Shown here piece after piece: positions 1 through 44,301 of a stretch of DNA of 64,000 nt; within the stretch, counting starts at the first letter, position 1; each line of letters begins with the position of its first letter. This stretch comes from a virus: positions 32,001 through 96,000 of the IMG/VR virus record IMGVR_UViG_3300037042_006682; one strand, 5' to 3'. The position numbers and the translations under genes are program-made. The notes under the pieces are model-generated. The model made no database searches and was not told the origin of the DNA. It worked only from the letters and a program-made list of their open reading frames with translations.

Positions 1-364
1 AGGCGTCGTCCGCGTAGAGCGTGAAGATCGACGAGGTGAGGTCGTAGTCGTCCATGTCCTCAGCATCGCGGTACCGCTGCATGAGGTCGTCAGAAAGCTG
101 GAGGGCCTGCGCGACGGGGCTGTTCGCGTCGAAGTTGCCGCCGGTCTGCAGGGCCAGGGCCCCCGTGTAGCCGTCCTTGGCGAGGAGCGGGTTGTCCTGG
201 TGCTTGCCCGCGATCACGGCGCCCTGGGTCACGCCGCGGGGCGCCGTGGGGCCCTCCTGGGCCGGCCCGCTCCCACGCCCCAGCCAGCCCCGGATCTTGT
301 CCCAGAGGCCCCCGCCCTTGTTTTCGGCCCCGGTTGGCTGCTGCTGCTGCTTGGGATCCGCCAT
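1..364 (-). CDS. Portal protein, T4 gp20-like (N-terminal part; runs off the window)
   Basis: Manual translation from ATG at 364 (SD GAGGAG/GAGG): MADPKQQQQ...RYRDAEDMDDYDLTSSIFTLYADDA, matching the gp20-type RYxxxxxMD...SxxxxYAD(D/E) motif; directly downstream of TerL. Confidence 0.7.
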   Translation of the reverse strand, partial: MADPKQQQQPTGAENKGGGLWDKIRGWLGRGSGPAQEGPTAPRGVTQGAVIAGKHQDNPLLAKDGYTGALALQTGGNFDANSPVAQALQLSDDLMQRYRDAEDMDDYDLTSSIFTLYADDA

Positions 365-382
365 GCCTCACGCTCCTCGCGC

Positions 383-3300
383 CTAACCCATCAAGAAGGG
401 CAACATGGGGACCTCGGCCTCGCCCTCGGGGCCCGGCTGCCCGGTCACCCACGCGAAATCCTCGGCCTCGGCGCGCCCCTCGCCTGGTTGTAGCACCCCG
501 AGGGGCACCCTCGGAACTTTTTTCAAAAGCCCCGCTACAACGCCCGCTACCGCATCGGCACAGTTGTGTACAAAGACCCCCACCGCCAGCGCGAAGTTAT
601 GATGAATATCTACGGTCATGTCAAAGACCGGCGCCGCCTCCAAGGGCTCCACGTGGGCCACGCAATACTCATGGGGCTGCCCCGGCGGCTGCCAAGACAG
701 GGGCATCAACAGATCCCCTGGCCTCAAGGCATGCGCTTCACAGAAGGTCCCCGCCCACAGCATAACCTCATGGTCAGGCGTGCAATCAAAGAACAGCCCC
801 GTCTCCAGCCAAACGCGGAGCATCTCGCACTCCCCCACTAGGTGCACATTGCGCGCCCACGCGGGCACCACGTCCCCATTGGCATCGCACGCATAGCTCC
901 AAAACTCGCGCCCCACCAGCTCACGTATGGGCACCGCCCTCCCATCCAGCATGGCAATCTTTGTCTCCCCAGAAAGGCAATCCTTCCCACCCGCCACGGG
1001 ATGGTCGATCTTGCCGCGGAGGCGATCGTGCTCTAGGGCCCGCAGCTCCCCGAGCAGGGGCGCGTGGGGGTACAACTCGATGCGCCGCTCGTAGATCGCC
1101 GAGCGCAGGGCCTCGTAGGGCACCATCGTCGCATCCACGCTCAAGATCTCCGAGGCCACGCCGCGCCGCTTCATATGCTGCAGAGTATCGACCGCTTGGT
1201 ATTGATCTGTCGAGAACCCGATCAACACAAACCCGTGTGCCTGGATGTCATAGATCACTGCCCGGATGTCGGCGAGCTGAATCTGCTCCCCCGGCGGGGG
1301 CCGCACCTGCAGCACGAGGTCGATCACGAAGGTCGGCGCGAGGTCCGTGTAGTGATCGCCCTCAGGCGTCCGCCGCACGACCTCCACCCAGCGCTCTATG
1401 TGCCCGCACGCGATCCCCGTGGCATCTCCTGACAGCGAGGTGTCGATGTGGACATAACGCAGGGCCCGCGGATTGCGCAGGGGCGTCCAGGCCTCCTCCG
1501 TAAACCCGCCCGGCAGGCGCCGCACCGAGGCCCTGGCCAGCTGATACCAGTGGATCACGAGGGGCTGCCCATACTGCCACGTCTGGTGATCTGCGGGGTG
1601 GCGCCGCGCCGGGTTCACAGCCTCCTGGATCTTCTCCGTGCGCTGGATGAACACGCTGATGGCCGTCGTGGGGACGCCCGCGATGTCGCGGATCGCATCC
1701 TCCAAGTTGGACTCGAAGTCCACGCGGTACTCCTCGGGAACCGCGATCACGCGCGCCTCGTCGGGGAGGGTCGCAAGGACCACCTCCTCGCCGGGGGGCA
1801 AGATGCGGCTGCGCAGGGAGCTGCCCCCGCAGAGCACCTGGAAGGTGCGCCCGCTGAAGGAGCCCGGCGGCTTGACCTCCCACGTGGCCATCTCCATCGC
1901 GTAGATCGAGGGGTCGTGGTGGGCCGCCGCGAGGCGCCGATCGATGAACGACCCCACCGTGTTCGCGCTCGACACCATCACGATCATGCCGGGGAGGTCC
2001 CCGCTCGCCTGCACGAAGCGCGACTTGATGCGGCGCTCCAGGGAGCGGTACGTGACCTCGGCGTGGTCGTAGTGCGCGAGGCTCTTCTGCTGGCCGTCTG
2101 CCGTGCGGATCTTCTGCTTGGTGGAGCGCACAAAGTTGGTGTTATGCACCACCACCCCATCCGCCACGAAGGTCTGGAACTCCGTCTCGATCGCGTAGGT
2201 CTGCTCGGGGGGCAACGGCGTCACCGCCGTCACGCGGGTCAGGCGGAGGTCGACGGGGAGGTCGGTGACGCGACAACGCTCGGGTCGGACGCCCCAGGCG
2301 GAGTCACGCATACCAGCAATCGCTGCCGCACGCGCCGTTGGGCAAGCCCATCCATGAATGCCTGGTTGATGAATGGTCCATCCCACACGGACGGGATGGT
2401 AGATCCGTTGATAACGATAAGGAACGGCTGCTGTTGCCGTTGGCAGTGCCCCCACATCGCCAACAACCGCGCTCTTGTTCGAGGCGCATAGAACGATGTC
2501 TTGTCCTTCCCCTCGACCACCACCGTCACCCCGTCGGCGCGATCCACCTCGAAGTCCGCCACCGTCAACCGCTGCTGTCCCCCGATCTCGTATGACACAA
2601 ACGGCAGTTGATCCTCGCCCCGGATCGCCACCACCCCCTCCTGCGCCATCAGGGCTTGCACCAGCACCAACTCCGCATCCGACCGACACGGTATCCGCTG
2701 CCCATCCGGCCCCGTCACCCAGTGCGTGTATGTCCGCTTGCGATCTCGGATCGCCTGCGCGTTCCCCGCGGAGATGCGCGTCCGCGACGCCTCCGTGTGC
2801 GGCGTCCCCGGCCTCCCCAAACGCGCCTCGCGTAGACGCCGCCTGTGCGCCTTGCTGAGCGGCTTGCCATAGCGTGGATTGTCCGCCCCCCACATCACGG
2901 GCGGCAATGCCATGCACCCCTCGGCAACCGCCTGTTTGGCCCTCTCTGACATTCGTTCTCGGGCGGCCGGATCCTGCATGAGACGCTTGTGCGCCTCGGA
3001 CATCTTGATCCGCGTCTCCTCGCTCACCGGCTTCTGAATACGCCCTCGCTGTGCCTCGGACATCTTGCGCCGCGTCTCCGCGCTGTGGTGCCATCCCGTC
3101 CGCAGCTTGGCAATCTCGCGCCTCCGCTGCCGCTGCTCCTCGTTCGGCACCCACCCCTTGCAGCCCCGCCGCGCCTCGGACATCTTGCGCCGCGTCTCCG
3201 CGCTGGCCGTCCGCCCCGTGTTGATCTCGCTGAGCTTCTTGCGCGTCTCCTCGGTATGCGTCCGCCCCGTATTCGCCTCGGACATCTTGCGCAGCTCGTC

Positions 3301-5818
3301 TTCGGTATGACGCCGCCTCTTGCCCGCCTCGCTGAGCTTTCCTCGTGTCTCCACTGAGACCTCGCGGCCTGCACACGCCTCGCGCATCTTCTGCTTGGCC
3401 TCCTCCGTATGCTTCTTGCCCTTGCGCGCCTCGCTGATCTTGCGCCGCGCCTCCTCGCTGAACACACGCCCCTTGCCTGCCGCACTCAACTTCTCGCGAT
3501 GTTCGTCCGTCAACGGCTTCCCACGCTTCGCCGCGCTGACCTTCGCCCGCGCTTCTGCACTCAACGTCTGCCCTTTCCTCGGCATCCCGCACCTCAACGA
3601 CCAGTTCGTCCCCGACCCGCACGTCCCGCGCGTAGCGGTACACCAGCCACGCGCCCTCCCGCACCAACACCGGGTGGTCCAGCGAGGGCGCCACCGCGCC
3701 CCCATCATAGGCCAGCTCCACTAAAGGCTGGACCGTCGAGGGGCGGATGGCAAAGCGACCGTACCGCACGCGCTGCGTCGCGTGATCGAGGCACTTTACC
3801 CGCCATCGAGATCGCTCTTCTGGCGCCATTGCCACAAGCGCGCCCACTGACAGATTTGTCTGTAACACGCCGCTTTTACAATGTAAAGCAGAAGTTGATC
3901 GAACACACTCGTCGAGGGCCGCGGCGAAGGCGTTAGTGCCCATGGAGCGCTCGGCGAGGTAGCTCGCGACGATCATCTGCACGTTGTAGGGGAAGTACGT
4001 CGCCTCGGTGTGGACGTCCGGTTTGAAGTGCTCTTGGAAGTACGGGCTGATCGCGAGCTTGTTGTCGATGGCCGACTTGAGGACCTGGCGCGCGAGGACC
4101 AGGTTGCGGCTCACGAGCACGATGCTCATCTCGGAGCCCGGCGACATGCCGTAGGAGGCCTGCGGGTTCACGAGGCAGCTCAGCTCGTAGAGGAGGCGGC
4201 ACATGGCGATCGAGAGGGCGGTCGTGTTGTGTACCACCACGCCATCCGCCACGAAGTTGCGCGGCCCCGGCACCTCCACGTCGTACACGTCCTCCAGCTC
4301 CCCGCTGCCCGGATCGTAGGACACCACCTGGTCCCAGAACAGATCGCCCCACCACGCGCACCACGGCGGCAGCGTGAAGGCCTGCTGCATGCGCACGAAC
4401 TTGGGGCGCCCCTGGTAACGAGACGCGCGCCACGGCGACCAAGCCTCGTTCCGCATCGGCCCCAGCTCCCGCCGTAGGCGTCGCAGCACAGCCGCGTTCA
4501 CCGGCATGATGTCCACGTTGGTGTTGCTGGCGGTCGCCCGCGCCGTTGCGAGGATCGTCGCGCAGCGGTCTTCCTTGCCCAGCACGGGTCCCACCGCCGT
4601 CAGGAAGCGCTCCAGGTTGTCAGCCTCCGTGACGAACAGGCGCCAGGCCGGCTTGGTGCGGAGTTCCCCCTTGTGCGTGTAGGTCTTCTGGCAGGGGTAG
4701 ATCCGCGAGTGTACGCCGAAGCGCAGGAGCAACTGCCCCACGTCGCGCACGAAGCCCTCGCTGGCCAACGTCAGCTCTGCCTTGCACGGCGCCTTGGGCT
4801 CCAAAGAGCCATCCGTCGCCCACAACCGATTGAGGAACAGCCCCAACTGCCGATCGGAAAGGCCAAAGAAGGCGGAAGGCACACGCTTGTCTCGCGATAG
4901 ATGGGCAAGGTCGTATTTATCTCGCACCCACGTCGTCCCGCAAGCACGCCACTCCTCACACTGACGTCCTCTGGTATCACGCGAGGTATCCTGTGCCACG
5001 CTCTGCACCACCAAGCGCATCGCGTCGGAGACCACATGAAAGCGCTCCATCACAGGTCCTGGCTTGTTGCAGAACGTCCAATTACTGCTTGTGCAACTAC
5101 CGTTTGCCAGCATGAACGCCACGAACTCGACCTCGGCGTCCGTGACCTTCAAAGGGTGCTCCGGCGGTGGCAGCGTGCGCGCCGTCCCCACTAGGGATCC
5201 GGGCTGCATCTCGCCCGCGGGCCGATACCCGTCCGGCGTCAGCACGGGGTGGTCCGGCGTGACCTCCACCCGCTTGCCGCTCAGCAGGCGCAGCGTCCCC
5301 ACGGGTTTGCGCCCCGCACATGTAACAATTGCTGGGCGCGTAACGGTACATCCCCTGTCCTGATCATAGGCCGCCACGTGCACCGCCCCCATCTCGTTCA
5401 GGGGCACCTCGCTGATCACACGCTGCTGCCCCAGATGGGGATCGTACAGCGTGCTCCGCGCACCCAGACACTTCCCCCACCCCGTGCTGCCCCCCAGGAT
5501 GACCTCGCGGTAGTGCGCGCCCGGCTCGAAGATCTCGATGAGCTTGCGCCGCAGGACCGGGTAGAGCGTCTGGCAGGACTCCCCCAGGTAGTAGGGATCA
5601 TCAATGAAGGTCGCCATGTCGACGGGGGCCACGCGGTACCGCTTCGCGTAGCACTCGTTGACGATCTCGGGGCGCCCCGCCTGCTCCTCATACAGGAGGG
5701 CCTCGAAGAGGCGCCGCTCATCGGGGGGCAGCGCCGCGAAGCGCCGCAGGAGGGCCGCCCGGCGCTCGGCCGGCGTGCGAACCGTCCGCGCGCGCCCCTC
5801 GGGGGTGCGGACGATCAT
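383..5818 (-). CDS. terL: Terminase large subunit precursor with three inteins (1811 aa; about 668 aa after splicing)
   Basis: Spliced motifs: Walker A GGSTGWGK|TT, Walker B AAALDE|TNF, VSSA coupling motif, nuclease HIDTSLSGD and KD|CAD; precedes the portal gene. Confidence 0.92.
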   Translation of the reverse strand: MIVRTPEGRARTVRTPAERRAALLRRFAALPPDERRLFEALLYEEQAGRPEIVNECYAKRYRVAPVDMATFIDDPYYLGESCQTLYPVLRRKLIEIFEPGAHYREVILGGSTGWGKCLGARSTLYDPHLGQQRVISEVPLNEMGAVHVAAYDQDRGCTVTRPAIVTCAGRKPVGTLRLLSGKRVEVTPDHPVLTPDGYRPAGEMQPGSLVGTARTLPPPEHPLKVTDAEVEFVAFMLANGSCTSSNWTFCNKPGPVMERFHVVSDAMRLVVQSVAQDTSRDTRGRQCEEWRACGTTWVRDKYDLAHLSRDKRVPSAFFGLSDRQLGLFLNRLWATDGSLEPKAPCKAELTLASEGFVRDVGQLLLRFGVHSRIYPCQKTYTHKGELRTKPAWRLFVTEADNLERFLTAVGPVLGKEDRCATILATARATASNTNVDIMPVNAAVLRRLRRELGPMRNEAWSPWRASRYQGRPKFVRMQQAFTLPPWCAWWGDLFWDQVVSYDPGSGELEDVYDVEVPGPRNFVADGVVVHNTTALSIAMCRLLYELSCLVNPQASYGMSPGSEMSIVLVSRNLVLARQVLKSAIDNKLAISPYFQEHFKPDVHTEATYFPYNVQMIVASYLAERSMGTNAFAAALDECVRSTSALHCKSGVLQTNLSVGALVAMAPEERSRWRVKCLDHATQRVRYGRFAIRPSTVQPLVELAYDGGAVAPSLDHPVLVREGAWLVYRYARDVRVGDELVVEVRDAEERADVECRSAGEGQRGEAWEAVDGRTSREVECGRQGACVQRGGAAQDQRGAQGQEAYGGGQAEDARGVCRPRGLSGDTRKAQRGGQEAASYRRRAAQDVRGEYGADAYRGDAQEAQRDQHGADGQRGDAAQDVRGAAGLQGVGAERGAAAAEARDCQAADGMAPQRGDAAQDVRGTARAYSEAGERGDADQDVRGAQASHAGSGRPRTNVREGQTGGCRGVHGIAARDVGGGQSTLWQAAQQGAQAASTRGAFGEAGDAAHGGVADAHLRGERAGDPRSQADIHALGDGAGWAADTVSVGCGVGAGASPDGAGGGGGDPGRGSTAVCVIRDRGTAAVDGGGLRGGSRRRGDGGGRGEGQDIVLCASNKSAVVGDVGALPTATAAVPYRYQRIYHPVRVGWTIHQPGIHGWACPTARAAAIAGMRDSAWGVRPERCRVTDLPVDLRLTRVTAVTPLPPEQTYAIETEFQTFVADGVVVHNTNFVRSTKQKIRTADGQQKSLAHYDHAEVTYRSLERRIKSRFVQASGDLPGMIVMVSSANTVGSFIDRRLAAAHHDPSIYAMEMATWEVKPPGSFSGRTFQVLCGGSSLRSRILPPGEEVVLATLPDEARVIAVPEEYRVDFESNLEDAIRDIAGVPTTAISVFIQRTEKIQEAVNPARRHPADHQTWQYGQPLVIHWYQLARASVRRLPGGFTEEAWTPLRNPRALRYVHIDTSLSGDATGIACGHIERWVEVVRRTPEGDHYTDLAPTFVIDLVLQVRPPPGEQIQLADIRAVIYDIQAHGFVLIGFSTDQYQAVDTLQHMKRRGVASEILSVDATMVPYEALRSAIYERRIELYPHAPLLGELRALEHDRLRGKIDHPVAGGKDCLSGETKIAMLDGRAVPIRELVGREFWSYACDANGDVVPAWARNVHLVGECEMLRVWLETGLFFDCTPDHEVMLWAGTFCEAHALRPGDLLMPLSWQPPGQPHEYCVAHVEPLEAAPVFDMTVDIHHNFALAVGVFVHNCADAVAGVVAGLLKKVPRVPLGVLQPGEGRAEAEDFAWVTGQPGPEGEAEVPMLPFLMG
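563..979 (-). mobile_element. TerL intein 3, mini-intein (139 aa, no endonuclease)
   Basis: CLSGETKIAMLDG...CTPDHEV...VFDMTVDIHHNFAL...VFVHN|C; inserted in the nuclease D-x-x-D motif. Confidence 0.92.
2141..3907 (-). mobile_element. TerL intein 2 (589 aa) hosting an out-of-frame endonuclease gene
   Basis: CVRSTSAL...SLDHPVLV (block B)...TYAIETEFQTFVADGVVVHN|T; the central ~450 aa are low-complexity text read from the alternate frame of the nested gene. Confidence 0.88.
2239..3585 (-). CDS. Nested NUMOD3-repeat + PD-(D/E)xK (TnsA-N-like) putative homing endonuclease, +1 frame inside TerL intein 2 (448 aa)
   Basis: SD GAGGTG then ATG (MPRKGQ); about 13 repeats like HTEETRKKLSEINTGR; C-terminal RSDAE...VADFEV...VVEGK; own TGA stop. 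Confidence 0.85.
   Translation of the reverse strand: MPRKGQTLSAEARAKVSAAKRGKPLTDEHREKLSAAGKGRVFSEEARRKISEARKGKKHTEEAKQKMREACAGREVSVETRGKLSEAGKRRRHTEDELRKMSEANTGRTHTEETRKKLSEINTGRTASAETRRKMSEARRGCKGWVPNEEQRQRRREIAKLRTGWHHSAETRRKMSEAQRGRIQKPVSEETRIKMSEAHKRLMQDPAARERMSERAKQAVAEGCMALPPVMWGADNPRYGKPLSKAHRRRLREARLGRPGTPHTEASRTRISAGNAQAIRDRKRTYTHWVTGPDGQRIPCRSDAELVLVQALMAQEGVVAIRGEDQLPFVSYEIGGQQRLTVADFEVDRADGVTVVVEGKDKTSFYAPRTRARLLAMWGHCQRQQQPFLIVINGSTIPSVWDGPFINQAFMDGLAQRRVRQRLLVCVTPPGASDPSVVASPTSPSTSA
4226..5470 (-). mobile_element. TerL intein 1 with in-frame LAGLIDADG endonuclease (415 aa)
   Basis: CLGARSTL...VTPDHPVLT...FMLANGS...LNRLWATDG...VYDVEVPGPRNFVADGVVVHN|T; inserted in Walker A. Confidence 0.93.
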
Positions 5819-6591
5819 AAGGCCGGGGCCTCAGCCTCCCCCTCCGCCCCCACAATGTCGATGGTCTCGCCCCCATAGAGGTCCCCGTCATCGTCCGTGG
5901 CCAGGACCTTGAACTCCTCCAGCAGGGCGAGGACGCGCCCCCGCGCCGCGGGCCGCTGCAGCACGGCCGCCACCTCGTCCCCGAAGCGCTGCTGCACGTT
6001 GACCACGACGCTCTGCGTCATCACCACGGAGGCCCCCTTGCTGCCGTGGTTGAAGCCGTAGGCCTCCTTGACCATGTGCATGCGGCAGATGGTGTCGACC
6101 ACCTGCTGGGCCGCCTGCCCCACGGCCGGAAGCGGGATCCCCGCCTGCTGCTCGTAGGCCAGGCCCATATCCACCCGGCCCTTCAAGACGCGGTACATCT
6201 CCTCCAGCCGGCTAAACTCCAGCTCCTGGTCCTCCATGCGCTGGCGCAGCCACCCCGCCATGCGGAGCTGCGCGGCCCCCACGAACAACGCACTCGGCAT
6301 GTAGTTGACACGATATTCCTGGAGCTGGTTCTCCAGGGATCTGCGCGTGATCTCCAAACGCTCCTGCGCCTCATTATGGATGAAGGCTGCCGTCGCCTGA
6401 CACGAGTACCCCTCCGAGAGCATATCGCGCACCTGGGGCCAGCACGTGAGGGACTCCAGCTTACGCGCCGAGGCCGTCTTCGTCTTCCACCCACTCTGGG
6501 CGGGCAATACGGGTCGTTCGCGCTTCGAGACCGTAGGGGTCGCTTTGGGCTTCGGGTTCCCCTTCTTACCGACTGATCCAGCCGTCCGCAT
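5815..6591 (-). CDS. Putative terminase small subunit / helical DNA-binding protein
   Basis: Overlaps the TerL start by 4 nt; HTH-like N-terminus and helical body; call is positional. Confidence 0.45.
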   Translation of the reverse strand: MRTAGSVGKKGNPKPKATPTVSKRERPVLPAQSGWKTKTASARKLESLTCWPQVRDMLSEGYSCQATAAFIHNEAQERLEITRRSLENQLQEYRVNYMPSALFVGAAQLRMAGWLRQRMEDQELEFSRLEEMYRVLKGRVDMGLAYEQQAGIPLPAVGQAAQQVVDTICRMHMVKEAYGFNHGSKGASVVMTQSVVVNVQQRFGDEVAAVLQRPAARGRVLALLEEFKVLATDDDGDLYGGETIDIVGAEGEAEAPAL

Positions 6592-27478: not shown

Positions 27479-28222
27479 TTACTCGCCATTAGATGGACCC
27501 TCCTTGTTTGAAACAGATGCTTCTGCTTTCAAAGCACATCTCCGCTTTGCGGAAGCACGCATCTTTATCTTTGTTTCTTCTGAAATAACCCGTCCCTTTA
27601 ATGCAGCACTAAGCTTGTTCTTTGTTTCATCAGAAAACACCCTTCCCTTATGAGCATCACTCATTTTTCGCTTTGCATCATCCGAGTGGCGCTTACCAGT
27701 GTTTATCTTTTTAAGCTTATCTTTCGTTTCATCAGAAACCTTCTTTCCAGCCATGCTCTTTCCAAGTCGTCTGGCACGTTCACGCTGCTCATCAGTTGTA
27801 ATACATTTCAACAATTCACTGTGACGAGTGCGCATCTCATCTGTCCAAACACGATTTCTATTTGCCGCAGCTACAGCCTCTCCAATATAAGCAGGCCGCT
27901 TTCTCCATCCACCGCGTCCACTAACAGAAGGAAGATGGTTATATCGAAGATCAACCGGAGTATTATCTATAAACTCCTGTTCTGCTTCCCTCAAACCATC
28001 AACATCATCAACACGTCTAAGGATTAAGAAATCAAAGCTATCAGCACCAAAAATAGCAAAGTCATGGGTGAGCAGGCTGTTTGAACGTCTGCCCGTTGAT
28101 AAGCAATACAAGTGCTGGGAAATCCTTCTCTTCATGTTCTTTGTTGATCCAATATAAATCATCCAGTTTGTTTTATTTTTAATGCAATAAACACCAGGCC
28201 CTCTGTCGAATACATCACTCAT
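27479..28222 (-). CDS. Free-standing GIY-YIG homing endonuclease with NUMOD3 repeats
   Basis: GVYCIKNK...IYIGST...R...H; HSDDAKRKMS-type repeats; strongly AT-rich relative to its flanks. Confidence 0.9.
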   Translation of the reverse strand: MSDVFDRGPGVYCIKNKTNWMIYIGSTKNMKRRISQHLYCLSTGRRSNSLLTHDFAIFGADSFDFLILRRVDDVDGLREAEQEFIDNTPVDLRYNHLPSVSGRGGWRKRPAYIGEAVAAANRNRVWTDEMRTRHSELLKCITTDEQRERARRLGKSMAGKKVSDETKDKLKKINTGKRHSDDAKRKMSDAHKGRVFSDETKNKLSAALKGRVISEETKIKMRASAKRRCALKAEASVSNKEGPSNGE

Positions 28223-34062: not shown

Positions 34063-37000
34063 GGCCAGGCACCCCTGCGCTTCCTCCCCCGGCAGCGCCA
34101 CCCCCATGCGGCGATAAAATTTGTCGCGCCCCCTTGCCTTGCGCTCGCTCCACGCCACCTTGGGATCCCGCACGTCCACCACCACCGGCGTGGGCTTGCC
34201 CGTGCACTGCCCCGCCCGCCAGGGGCAGTAGTGCGCGCACTTCTCGGGGGCCGGCGTGCACCACCGCCGCACCCGGCCGATCGCCTGCTCCGCATCCCCC
34301 AGGGGGGTCGCCAGCACGATCACGTCCAGGGCGGACACGTCGAGGCCCTCCGCGACGAGCTGGATCGTGCAGAGCAACACGTTCGCGCGCTCCGCCTCCC
34401 GCAGCGCCTCGCGCGTCAGGGTGCGCTTGGCCTCCCCCTCCTCCACGGTGAACCACTGCCCCGTGTAGGGCGCGATGGCCACCGGGAACGGCGGGGGCGC
34501 CACCTCCAGGATCTTGCGCAAGTCCGCCCGGAACGCCCGCAGGTGCTCCAGCCGATGGCTCACAACCATCACCTTGCGCCCCTTGCGCACCGCGATGGCG
34601 ATGTCCTCCGCGATGTGCCGCGTGCGCGCCGCGTCCTCCCCGAGCTGGCTGATCACCTGCGCGCTGTTCATGCGCATCGCGCTCACCCGGTAGTCCCCGC
34701 GCCGGATCCCCGTCAGCTCGCTGTCCGACTGCAGGAGGCGCACCCCGAACGGCATCGACTGGGCCTGCATGGTGTGCAGGATCGGCCCGATGTGGTGGAA
34801 GAACACGGGCTCCGCCCGATCCGCGCGCCGCGGCGTCGCCGAGAGCCCCAGGCGGTACGCCGCCATGAAGCGGTGCGCCACGCTGCTCCACACCTCAGAA
34901 CCAATATGATGACAATTATGAACAACAATACCACCATCAAGAACATAGGATGGATGGCCCGAGACGCTCAAATTGAAGACATCAACGCAATCTCCATCAG
35001 TGCGGAATCCAAGTCGCTCAAAATCCTCTCGTTGCGCAACCGCAACACCAACCACCCTTTCTCCCTCAAAAAACGATCCTTCTTCGCATCGCGGTCCTTC
35101 GTCTTTACTGAGTGAGAATACCCATCCACCTCGATCGCTAGCTTCATCATCGGATGTGCGACGTCTATCTTGTAGCAATTCGGCAACCTGGATGGATTGT
35201 TCTTCGGCCGTGATGTCAGAACAACGAACTCCGCGATCCATCCATCTCCCAGCGCTTCTAGCAACACACGCTGTGGAACAGGCATGTCGCATCCATTCCC
35301 CCCTCGTTTTTTTAACGGCACAAACCCATTCCTCTGTTTGGTCTCCATAACCTTTGCGATCACGCCAAGCATGCGCATAGGGTTCTTGTCGCGCATACGG
35401 AGCGAAGCGCTTTCCCTCAGCGAAGAATCCTTCGCATGTCTTTCTAGCATCATAGAGGAATACACCGTCGAATGATCCAGCATGTAAAGACTGTGTGCTT
35501 TCTGCTGACAAGACACCGAACAAAACCTTCTTTGCCTCCCCATCAGTTTGTTCTCTCCGCAAAAAGCGCAAAAAGGACGACCATTCATAGTCCTCTGTCG
35601 TATCCCCTGTGCCGAACATGTCATCGAGCAGAACTTCCGTCCCTTCCTGACGCTGTTCTCCTTCCCGCAAAACGCACATGTTCCCGGTGTGTTCTTGACT
35701 GCCTTCTCCATGTTCCATCCTCATCCTGGTGCAATCATCAAAACTTACCAGAACGTCTCCACACAACGAACTGGCATGCTTCCATCCATCAACAGTCAAA
35801 AACGGATGGTTCTTGGTACATACAATATCAACACCACACAAAAGGCTAACAACAACACAATCGCTCACACACACGCTCCGCTTAAAAACATGTTCAACAA
35901 CACCTTCCCCAAGAGCATTAAAAACCGTCATCCCAATCACAACATCCCCAATAGCCACCTTGCCATCTGGGGTATCGATCTTCTGCTCAGCGGGAAAGCA
36001 CTCATCTGAAACGAACAGCCCGAACGCCTCGTACAGGGCGCGCGGGTAGCGCTGCGTCTGCACGTCCTTGGCCAGGGACTGGATCATGGCGATCACGAAG
36101 TCCTTGTCACGGTAGTCGCAGGTGTCCTGGCGCACCACGCCGATCCGCGCGGCCGGCAGCACGTCCCGGATGCGGGCCGCCCACTGCTCCAGGAAGAACT
36201 CCTTGTGGACCACCACGAGCGTGGCCCGCCCCAGGCGCCGCGCCAACTCCACGGCCAGGATGGTGTTATGCGTGGGCACGCAATTCCGCGTCAGGTAAAG
36301 GTGGTTCGGCGCATCAACCGCAATGCACGTTGCCAATCCTTTCCCAATGGCCGTCACAGACTCCACCGCACGCCCGACCTTGCGTTGCCAGCCATTGCGA
36401 TAAAACTCCGCCTTCTTGCGTGAAAATCTAAAGGGGCAAATGTCTGCTGGGAGTTTTATGTGTAGTCGAAAGCTATCAAACCATCGCGAGTGCACTCCAT
36501 CCTTTGTGTATCGCGTCTGACGTTTCACCAGTTTGCACGTACCCCCCAGAGAGAAAACAATCCGCTGGACCGCATGGGCGATCTGGTCTGATACCGTAGC
36601 ATACTCAACACTTCCGCCTCCACTTGCATATCCGTCTGTATCAAACAGTCCCTGGAGAAGGGATACCCGTGTTGCGACAGATCCACCTTCGTAAACTGTC
36701 GGAATAAATTTATCGTGTGCGGTCAGCCCGAGCATGCCTAGCTTGCGCATGCGCTTTCTGAACGATCCTTCTTGTTGACCAAATTTGATCGGTGGAGAAA
36801 AGCGATAAACCGCAGTATAGCCAGCACGTTGCTTGAGTGCCATTACACGATTTGGCGGCTCTACTGTCATCATATCTACGATCTCTCTATCGGGTGTGCA
36901 TACAGAGATCCCATTGGTGTTGCAAAAGTGGCCATCCCCAATGAGAACACCGAGCGTGTATGGCTCAAAAATCATTTCGCCATCTACCCCCTCAAGGGGG

Positions 37001-42285: not shown

Positions 42286-44301
42286 TTACCTCGGCTTATC
42301 GCCAGTGAAGATCAGCTCTACCACGTCATCGAGCGCGCCCTCGCGGAGGTCGGCCCCTACCATCGCGATCGATACCGAGGTCTCGCTCAACATGTGGATC
42401 GTGCTAGTCTTGAGATACTCCTCCAGCTGGCTTAATTCCCCCCGCCGCCGGGGGATCGCGCTCATATTCGTCGTGATCAGCGTCGTACGGCAGTAGGCGC
42501 CCCGGAAGCGCAGCAGATCGTCTAGCAGGCGCTCCTCGGCCCCCTCCTTGTCGCGCACCCCCTTCCCGAGGTCGTCGAGCACGAGCACGTCCACGTCGAG
42601 GATGCGCTCCCAGAGGAGCTTCTCCCCCTCAAAGCCCTTACTCCCGAACTTGATGTCCTTGAGGGCCGCGGCCTCGATGAACAGCCCCGTGTTCCCGCGC
42701 CGGCGCGCCTCCTTGAGGGCGATCACGGCCGCTGAAGTATTGTGACTAATGACGCCGCTTGACCAAAAAAGATGATCCTTGGGAACTACAAAATCATAAA
42801 CGTCTTGTTTTTTAGATTGCACTACGCTCTTAACCTTAAAATACCTAACAGAAGACATCGAAAGCGACTGTAGCGAAGCAAGATCCTTGTTCCCTGGCAC
42901 TATATCAATCAATGAATCCACAACCCTCTTTAGAACAGATACAGAAATCACTCCTCGCTTAGCTGACGAACTAAAAAGACCGTATAGTTTTTCACCCCAA
43001 AAATACCTTAATCCACGCTTTTCAATCCTTGCAATGGCAAAGCCAGCATCTATTAGTATTCTGTCAATTGTATCCTTTTTTACAGGTACAACAGTCATAC
43101 ACACATTGCTGCTTCTGACTTTATCTGCTGCAACACGCAACAGTTCAACTTTGTCCTTTGTTATATCAGAAAACCCTATGTTCTCCTCAAATGCAACTAA
43201 TGCCTCCCCTGAAATATACAGTCTCCAATACTCACGCTTGATACGCGCCCCATTCGTCGCCATTTTCATACATGGTTTTATTGTTGAATTCACACCAAAC
43301 GCCATTAGTACAATTTGCAGATCCCTAACAAGCCTCTGCGACTTGCTGGTGTACTCGACAACACACCCACAAATCGAGCCATCCCCTGAAAAAAGCGAAC
43401 GCATAAAGCTACGCAAAACACTAGACGGAGAAGACAGTAATGAATCACAGATACAAACACTCTCGCTTGTGCCGCATCCCAATGCAGTCATAAACACATT
43501 CAATTTTTTTCCACCACGTATACTCGTATCAATACATCCGCTCTCTTGAACCACATCATGTCCACGACAAAAACCAAGGCTCTCCATAACGCTAACAACG
43601 TGCTCTGTGGCAAGACTGTTAGAATTTGAAAATACATTCTTACAATTTACCACACGACCCTCAGCTATGAACCATCCGAGCATAGACGCCACGTCACAAT
43701 CAATAACGACATCTCGGTCGCCAATGGTAATGCGCATTGGATCGCCATCGCTGACAACGCAACGAGCATCAACAGCAACAAAATCATCCTCACAAAGATC
43801 TCCCATGCGCACCATGGCATCACCACTATCCCGCCATACACGCACACGGTGTTCCTCTGTCGCCGTGACACACAATCCATTGGACAGTTCCATGCAAAGT
43901 GTAGGCTGTATGCCATCCGCATAAACCTGCGTTGCCACAGCATAATGCCCATCCCCCGCATACACAGGCATTTCCACGGGAGAACACGCCAAAATTGGAC
44001 TCGCCAACGATCCAATCCTATGCAACCGCCCATTGGCTACCACGATCTCTCTATCCGAAAGGCACTTCCCCGTGCCGTTCTTCCCGTGCAGCACGAGGCC
44101 CACGCCGCGCGCCAGCATGTCGTCCAGCGCCACGAGGTAGTTGTACAGCTCCATCTTGTGCAGCCCCGCGCTCACCCCGTCGAAGTGCGCGTCGCGATAG
44201 CGCAAGGGGATCCGCATCCGCTCCATGTCCTTGAGGTTCAGCTGCCGGCGCATCCCACTGCGCGCCTCGGCCACCTGCTCCAGGTCCTGCTCGTCAGTCA
44301 T
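42286..44301 (-). CDS. DnaC/IstB-like AAA+ helicase loader with intein (about 229 aa after splicing)
   Basis: IPLRY, HGKNGTGK|T, VLVLDDLG, LITTN. Confidence 0.88.
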   Translation of the reverse strand: MTDEQDLEQVAEARSGMRRQLNLKDMERMRIPLRYRDAHFDGVSAGLHKMELYNYLVALDDMLARGVGLVLHGKNGTGKCLSDREIVVANGRLHRIGSLASPILACSPVEMPVYAGDGHYAVATQVYADGIQPTLCMELSNGLCVTATEEHRVRVWRDSGDAMVRMGDLCEDDFVAVDARCVVSDGDPMRITIGDRDVVIDCDVASMLGWFIAEGRVVNCKNVFSNSNSLATEHVVSVMESLGFCRGHDVVQESGCIDTSIRGGKKLNVFMTALGCGTSESVCICDSLLSSPSSVLRSFMRSLFSGDGSICGCVVEYTSKSQRLVRDLQIVLMAFGVNSTIKPCMKMATNGARIKREYWRLYISGEALVAFEENIGFSDITKDKVELLRVAADKVRSSNVCMTVVPVKKDTIDRILIDAGFAIARIEKRGLRYFWGEKLYGLFSSSAKRGVISVSVLKRVVDSLIDIVPGNKDLASLQSLSMSSVRYFKVKSVVQSKKQDVYDFVVPKDHLFWSSGVISHNTSAAVIALKEARRRGNTGLFIEAAALKDIKFGSKGFEGEKLLWERILDVDVLVLDDLGKGVRDKEGAEERLLDDLLRFRGAYCRTTLITTNMSAIPRRRGELSQLEEYLKTSTIHMLSETSVSIAMVGADLREGALDDVVELIFTGDKPR
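42739..44064 (-). mobile_element. DnaC intein with LAGLIDADG endonuclease (442 aa)
   Basis: CLSDREIV...ATEEHRV...LGWFIAEG...FSGDG...VYDFVVPKDHLF...ISHN|T; strongly AT-rich. Confidence 0.92.

Follow-up and report, generated by a model that had tools for sequence, protein, structure and literature searches.

A probably mobile intein in a phage terminase gene, with a separate gene for a TnsA-like candidate homing endonuclease overprinted in the +1 frame

The gene for the terminase large subunit (TerL) of a metagenome-derived virus very probably contains a mobile intein that is accompanied by its homing endonuclease as a gene of its own, overprinted on the intein in the +1 frame. The window analyzed here, a stretch of 64,000 nucleotides, is part of a virus record of 161 kb with 67 % GC. 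In the window, TerL is encoded with three inteins in one uninterrupted frame (Table 1); when the inteins are removed, the Walker A (GWGK|T), Walker B (LDE|T) and C-terminal KD|CAD motifs of the terminase are restored, and homologue searches recovered TerL proteins that are free of inteins. The second intein, inserted in the Walker B motif, encloses an ORF that begins after 107 intein codons of the host frame and stops 33 codons short of the intein end. The first-pass annotation of this DNA, made from the sequence alone, had described a 589-aa intein together with a complete 448-aa gene in the +1 frame that possesses its own Shine-Dalgarno (SD) element, ATG and TGA, and these coordinates were confirmed. 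The dual-coding element that it proposed is also real, given that the +1 frame is under purifying selection, the TerL frame is kept open and the nuclease gene has a conserved start of its own.

Table 1. Features of the terL locus, in window positions
Feature	Position	Strand	Basis or remark
TerL precursor, 1811 aa, three inteins	383..5818	(-)	single stop-free ORF
Intein 1, Walker A, 415 aa, ordinary in-frame LAGLIDADG	4225..5470	(-)	PF14890 + PF14528; context only
Walker B intein (intein 2), 589 aa, Cys1...His-Asn then Thr	2141..3907	(-)	splicing motifs, empty alleles
N-terminal splicing region, 107 aa: Cys1, block B S-x-x-H78, G-D-E strand	3587..3907	(-)	invariant residues
SD-like GAGGTG	3590..3595	(-)	4 nt 5' of internal ATG; doubles as intein Glu-Val codons; putative function
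Overprinted gene P0001, 448 aa, NUMOD3 array + TnsA-like nuclease	2239..3585	(-)	+1-frame ORF, ATG 3585, TGA 2239
NUMOD3-type repeats, about 12 (residues about 6-272), putative DNA-binding array	2770..3570	(-)	PF07460 E 1e-29
TnsA-like PD-(D/E)xK nuclease domain (residues 273-420; E305, D344, E358, K360)	2326..2769	(-)	fold match
C-terminal splicing region	2141..2325	(-)	first part overlaps unconserved tail of nuclease gene
Intein 3, 139-aa mini-intein, TerL nuclease domain	563..979	(-)	ORF reading; context only

The other two TerL inteins vary independently of the Walker B intein. Both are missing from L001 and from one contig of run X5, which jumps the 417 nt of intein 3, and L002 has intein 1 in a mini form. 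The allele in run X5, which is an RNA library, retains the Walker B intein; we rejected this allele as a sign of expression or RNA splicing because contigs cannot reveal transcription and the DNA of L001 shows the same absence. The portal-like gene that follows terL (starting at window position 364 on the minus strand; G000:C1:29300-32364) contains an intein with what by eye is an in-frame HNH-type nuclease, and this intein is absent from L001 and L002.

The Walker B intein has the residue set of a class 1 cis-splicing intein, namely Cys1, the block B His, the penultimate His, the terminal Asn and a +1 Thr/Ser. It is inserted in frame at a conserved host site, between ...AALDE and TNFV... (GACGAG|ACCAAC), and its block B reads S-L-D-H78; across 13 members of the subfamily, C1, H78, P79, G99, D100, E101 and the terminal H-N are invariant, and the residue following the intein is Thr or Ser. 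Empty homologous alleles (L013, L014, L016, L018 and many more) read DE-T-N/D-F directly. The Pfam profile PF14890 matches the window intein with an E-value of only 0.068. Structure prediction was performed for L068, a natural mini-intein of the same subfamily, rather than for the window protein; the resulting model adopts the HINT fold, with pLDDT >90 in both halves and <50 in the middle, and its best Foldseek matches are inteins (E 3e-6). Block F (window 2141-2215, minus strand) is strongly conserved in the subfamily despite reading Y-A-I or Y-S-I where Y-D-(I/L) is usual, with the Asp retained in L004 and L065, and despite having no block F His. These two residues are common but not universal among inteins, and because block F is without them, the splicing chemistry of the subfamily may be unusual. 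Purifying selection on the splicing regions and their placement in an essential motif suggest that the intein is removed by protein splicing, and a Walker B motif left unspliced should disable packaging.

The overprinted gene encodes an array of NUMOD3-type repeats followed by a nuclease domain. The array is confirmed, although the number of repeats, initially put at about 13, is closer to 12 (11 by motif search and one near residue 263); among alleles, its length spans a roughly tenfold range. The PD-(D/E)xK nuclease that had been proposed to follow the array is supported by structure comparison. An AlphaFold2 model of the domain (pLDDT 86.7) matches Tn7 TnsA (1t0f) with a Z-score of 11.2 and an rmsd of 3.4 over 119 residues (Foldseek E 2.3e-6), whereas other matches score lower (next Z 7.0), including those to Vsr (Z 6.8) and I-Bth0305I (Z 5.6), which are at background level. 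In the alignment, D344 and E358-x-K360 correspond to D114 and Q130-x-K132 of TnsA, which we take to be catalytic positions, the sequence match itself having an E-value of merely 0.4. The motif R301-S-x-x-E305...D344-F...E358-x-K360 is invariant among six aligned homologues, so that both the fold and the E...D...(E/Q)xK residues of a TnsA-like nuclease are present. The TnsA profile PF08722 gave no match to the window protein, and L003 stays under the cut-off (E 6.6e-5), whereas L004 (E 2.7e-10), P0015 and P0020 do match; the window domain is recognized by neither Pfam nor PHROGs. Matches of the window protein to Tail_tube, Talin and MEF2 are weak, fall below the cut-off and were disregarded. 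The encoded protein thus keeps the TnsA-type catalytic residues, and it is under purifying selection. Across the overlap, the three codon positions of the +1 frame have G+C contents of 0.64/0.53/0.82 and those of the TerL frame 0.82/0.64/0.53; by this measure it is the +1 frame that shows the gene-like pattern.

Searches seeded with the TerL exteins and the nuclease yielded one near-identical copy (L006) and 12 divergent homologues (L001, L002, L003, L004, L005, L017, L030, L065, L073, L106, L107 and L108; L107 is a fragment without intein ends). The divergent homologues range from 45 to 67 % GC and their nuclease genes from 216 to 477 codons, all of them in the +1 frame with the host frame open; nuclease identity to homologues from other assemblies is 67-82 %. 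The insertion site is mostly the same DE|T, being one codon off in L004. In annotated phage genomes, a tblastn search for relatives found no match. In the nuclease gene of L030 (L030:2478-3911), the TnsA-like domain is duplicated in tandem, and its second copy has lost the active-site D and K.

High GC3 makes alternative frames poor in stops, and the first-pass annotation had cautioned that the openness of the second frame might reflect nothing else. The caution is warranted for genes of this genome with GC3 of about 0.96, in two of which the equivalent frame is open for 444 and 489 codons, but not for the nuclease ORF, the GC3 of which is 0.815. When the synonymous codons of the nuclease gene were shuffled with protein and codon use preserved, 9.5 stops were expected in the TerL frame where none is observed, and none of the 5000 shuffles was free of stops. 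T is never found in the third position at the 88 sites where it would create a host-frame stop, compared with 39 of the 233 sites elsewhere (p = 1.7e-6). The 12 homologues likewise contain no host-frame stops, against expectations of 3.0-17.5, whereas four nuclease genes that are not overprinted hold 27-50 stops in the same frame. Chance openness is ruled out by these observations, and it is the synonymous choices in the nuclease gene that hold the TerL frame stop-free. Because synonymous changes alone suffice to avoid host-frame stops in this arrangement, the +1 offset may be favored.

Pairwise Nei-Gojobori dN/dS, calculated with each frame treated singly rather than under a dual-frame model, shows that each frame is conserved where it is functional, as the dual-coding interpretation had predicted. 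For the nuclease domain, the +1-frame values against L001, L002 and L005 are 0.18, 0.26 and 0.15, respectively, whereas those of the TerL frame are 2.0-2.3; with distant alleles the nuclease values are 0.44-0.70 against 1.6-2.0. For the NUMOD3 array, the values against the three closest divergent alleles are lower in the +1 frame (0.31-0.42) than in the TerL frame (1.2-1.5). The TerL-frame values above 1 arise because the other frame is constrained and do not signify positive selection. Conversely, TerL-frame dN/dS is 0.12-0.27 in the N-terminal splicing region and 0.06-0.12 over the last 33 intein codons. In the tail of the nuclease gene (L001, L002 and L005; 25-28 codons only), the TerL frame gave 0.31-0.45 and the +1 frame 0.58-1.5, that is, selection tends to revert to the TerL frame there, on few sites.

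The distribution of the Walker B intein is patchy. In the TerL tree, 32 empty, 10 full and 3 mini alleles are interspersed and require 9 state changes. The hypothesis that the intein carriers form one clade is rejected (p-AU 1e-54, 11 rows; the test omits L004, in which the site is one codon off, and L065, which has a long branch and possibly misaligned exteins). L001 and L002 are identical in their exteins (100 %) and differ in the splicing domain (82 % identity) and the nuclease (69 %), whereas the window and L005 share only 62 % extein identity but 81-82 % intein identity. The history of the intein therefore appears to be decoupled from that of TerL, as in homing endonuclease elements, which fits lateral transfer by homing, although the intein trees are mostly poorly resolved. 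Patchy presence can equally stem from repeated loss, and the nuclease might be expressed and selected in phage competition, where it would cut the genomes of rivals, or in some other role, without homing, on an intein that is inherited vertically. We consider this unlikely. The intein and nuclease trees do agree with the extein tree in their deepest split, and TnsA-like domains also occur in phage head-completion proteins (L004 matches phrog_218), but vertical inheritance sits poorly with exteins that are identical yet house differing intein alleles and with diverged exteins whose inteins are nearly identical, and alleles without the nuclease persist, which implies that the nuclease is dispensable to the phage. 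[quoted passage not shown] The deletions that removed the nuclease are multiples of three.

The start of the nuclease gene is conserved as well. The internal ATG is kept in 12 of the 13 full alleles examined (TTG in L065) and is almost always formed by an Asp codon plus G, directly after the G-D-E strand. Upstream of it, a GAGG/GGAGG element recurs by way of different host dipeptides, E-V, W-R and V-R, E-V being used by one subgroup and W-R by another. Since different host codons rebuild the same element, selection seems to act on the SD-like DNA signal. In the window, the short spacing (4 nt) and the sharing of the element with conserved intein codons count against such a signal. No significant or conserved RNA fold was predicted at the nuclease start (z between -1.4 and 0.7), and a hairpin of the kind that masks the ribosome-binding sites of other phage nuclease genes was rejected on this basis. 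The same data bear on a programmed +1 frameshift from the TerL frame, which would produce a fusion of extein, N-terminal intein part and nuclease without a start of its own. Such a frameshift could be accommodated in the subgroup of the window, where the +1 frame is open for 31-70 codons 5' of the ATG, and genuine in-frame fusions of this composition, belonging to split inteins, are found in the distant L111 and L112. Nevertheless, it is very unlikely, given that the upstream open stretch is merely 1-2 codons in L003 and L004, that the ATG and the variously encoded SD-like element are maintained, and that the start has no conserved RNA structure.

Two further explanations have a negligible probability. 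An assembly artefact, with the nuclease truly in frame in a normal intein and displaced by two compensating indels, might be suspected in a metagenome-derived record with repeats that can confuse assembly, but an in-frame fusion would give the second frame no cause to lose stops, the same offset recurs in 12 other assemblies with extein identity down to about 43 %, and the compensating frameshifts envisaged at the outset were not found, as contigs of run X2 span the nuclease gene gap-free and the length differences in run X5 are +9 and +15 nt (run X1, which may be the source sample, was left out of account). Removal at the RNA level, by a self-splicing intron that carries the ORF while the intein motifs are incidental, would be in line with the occurrence of NUMOD3 arrays and relatives of the nuclease in group I intron-like inserts, but Rfam, which may overlook divergent phage introns, matches nothing in window 300-6000 at E <= 1, an intron has no need of an open host frame, and the splicing residues are conserved at the protein level.

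For the mobile intein with an overprinted endonuclease gene, we propose the following cycle. The TerL frame runs open through all 1811 codons, and the two HINT halves would fold around some 450 unstructured residues, splice out and restore the Walker B DE-T of the packaging ATPase. Ribosomes would also initiate inside the intein, as the conserved SD-like element and ATG suggest, to produce the 448-aa nuclease. In co-infection, the NUMOD3 array would bind intein-free terL, which the nuclease would cut or nick at or near the insertion site, and repair would then copy the intein and the nuclease gene together. In-frame deletions have dropped the nuclease in some alleles and generated mini-inteins.

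A profile search with the nuclease collected 1716 representatives at E <= 0.001; among the distant ones examined, some lie in other settings. In L109:1-5007, the major capsid gene (Gp23) is in pieces, with two TnsA-like ORFs and one NUMOD3 ORF in between. The locus also has five matches to group I introns, which are weak (E-values from 3e-5 to 3e-4) and score under the gathering cut-off. In L111:1-3568 (TerL) and L112:1704-6456 (DNA polymerase A), the N-half of a split intein continues in frame into a TnsA-like nuclease; the fusion ends in a stop and the C-half opens a separate overlapping gene. Both are single contigs, in which a frameshift error is possible, and their other frames are closed. 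Group I intron-like inserts and split inteins are typical settings of homing endonucleases. On balance, we lean slightly towards the view that NUMOD3 plus TnsA-like nucleases constitute an undescribed, working family of homing endonucleases that occurs in phages in three states, namely overprinted on contiguous inteins (the window and its 12 homologues), joined in frame to the N-half of split inteins (L111, L112) and associated with group I intron-like inserts (L109), and that the overprinted state is stable and actively homing rather than a short-lived intermediate. If so, the full, mini and empty alleles in near-identical terminases offer a direct test case for nuclease gain, shift and loss.

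The novelty of the layout that the first-pass annotation implied does not hold, since out-of-frame intein endonucleases, including those in phage TerL, are described in preprints of 2025-2026. Gosselin, Arsenault and Gogarten (bioRxiv 10.1101/2025.01.02.630785) reported contiguous actinobacteriophage inteins, many of them in TerL, with the endonuclease in another frame, proposed their origin by invasion of a free-standing nuclease and presented signs of continued transfer. The element described here resembles these inteins: it is a contiguous phage intein, its endonuclease is off-frame, its host is TerL and it bears signs of transfer. An origin through the invasion of a mini-intein by a free-standing nuclease, as suggested initially for the window, is plausible and is the same as the published model. 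With a complete ORF between the splicing blocks, an open host frame and purifying selection on the +1 frame, the Walker B intein belongs with the out-of-frame-endonuclease inteins. The nucleases differ, however. Those of Gosselin et al. are endonuclease VII-like on the same strand or LAGLIDADG/Vsr-like on the antisense strand, and the one in the window, on the same strand in the +1 frame, is none of these types, so that it stands as a variant of the layout; the terms 'NUMOD' and 'Walker B' are absent from the main text of that preprint. Phillips, DeSimone and Gogarten (bioRxiv 10.64898/2026.09.14.751524) described a cyanobacterial dnaX intein with an out-of-frame LAGLIDADG endonuclease, citing an earlier report on the dnaX intein (Gorbalenya 1998, as cited there). 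The likeness extends to the overlapping ORF, which has an SD of its own, to dN/dS that differs by frame and to coexisting empty, mini and full alleles; in contrast, the dnaX host is a bacterial clamp-loader gene and its nuclease is LAGLIDADG, whereas here a PD-(D/E)xK nuclease resides in a phage terminase Walker B motif and the overlap, 216 to 477 codons, is longer.

In fractured genes (Dassa et al. 2009, PMC2677866), split intein halves flank a free-standing Vsr-like or GIY-YIG endonuclease. As in the window, the nuclease gene occupies the intein endonuclease position, a terminase is among the hosts, and the 3' end overlaps the C-terminal intein part. Fractured genes have a broken host frame and splice in trans, whereas here the TerL frame is continuous and the intein contiguous; among the loci considered, the host ORF is broken in L111 and L112 only. 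The nuclease sites differ too, being canonical D...E-x-K here and EDxHD in the Vsr-type nucleases of Dassa et al. A further parallel is the ShiLan insertion in a phage methylase (Arsenault et al. 2025, PMC11855218), in which the host frame is reported to be free of stops and a hidden nuclease to lie in another frame; the nuclease is HNH, and the insertion is not identified as an intein.

The principle of overprinting is therefore already known, and what appears to be new here is a TnsA-like nuclease with NUMOD3 repeats in an intein. TnsA itself depends on TnsB and TnsC, and its C-terminal domain is different. The N-terminal nuclease of Tn7 TnsA (PF08722; PDB 1t0f, 1f1z) has its fold and catalytic positions in common with the window nuclease, but the latter is joined to a NUMOD3 array and, unlike TnsA, has no transposon context. 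We found no paper on a TnsA-like nuclease in an intein or a homing role, in a search that covered the subscription literature thinly. A TnsA-type nuclease is thus added to the few candidate homing endonucleases of the PD-(D/E)xK class, and the allele series makes the model of a free-standing nuclease invading an intein, as well as the homing cycle, testable. More generally, an essential phage gene can bear about 450 codons that are constrained merely against stops, presumably because protein splicing discards the stretch, and that DNA can at the same time encode an enzyme under selection. Gene callers output either the precursor or the nuclease plus a truncated terminase, so that such elements are overlooked or taken for degenerate inteins.

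Other genes in the window carry related elements. A free-standing GIY-YIG + NUMOD3 endonuclease gene (window 27479-28222, minus strand) lies directly downstream of a RecA-like gene and served as a negative control. A DnaC-like ATPase gene at about 42739-44064 (minus strand) has a Walker A intein (GK|C...HN|T) with LAGLIDADG-like motifs that by eye are in frame. A helicase gene (37707-34036) contains a second overprinted intein of the same genome as its intein 2 (window 34915-36000, minus strand), inserted at a Walker B DE|C site; its nuclease ORF (35711-34968), in the +1 frame, encodes a DUF559/Vsr-like protein of 247 aa (PF04480, E 8e-12), and its host frame has 0 stops compared with 10.9 expected.
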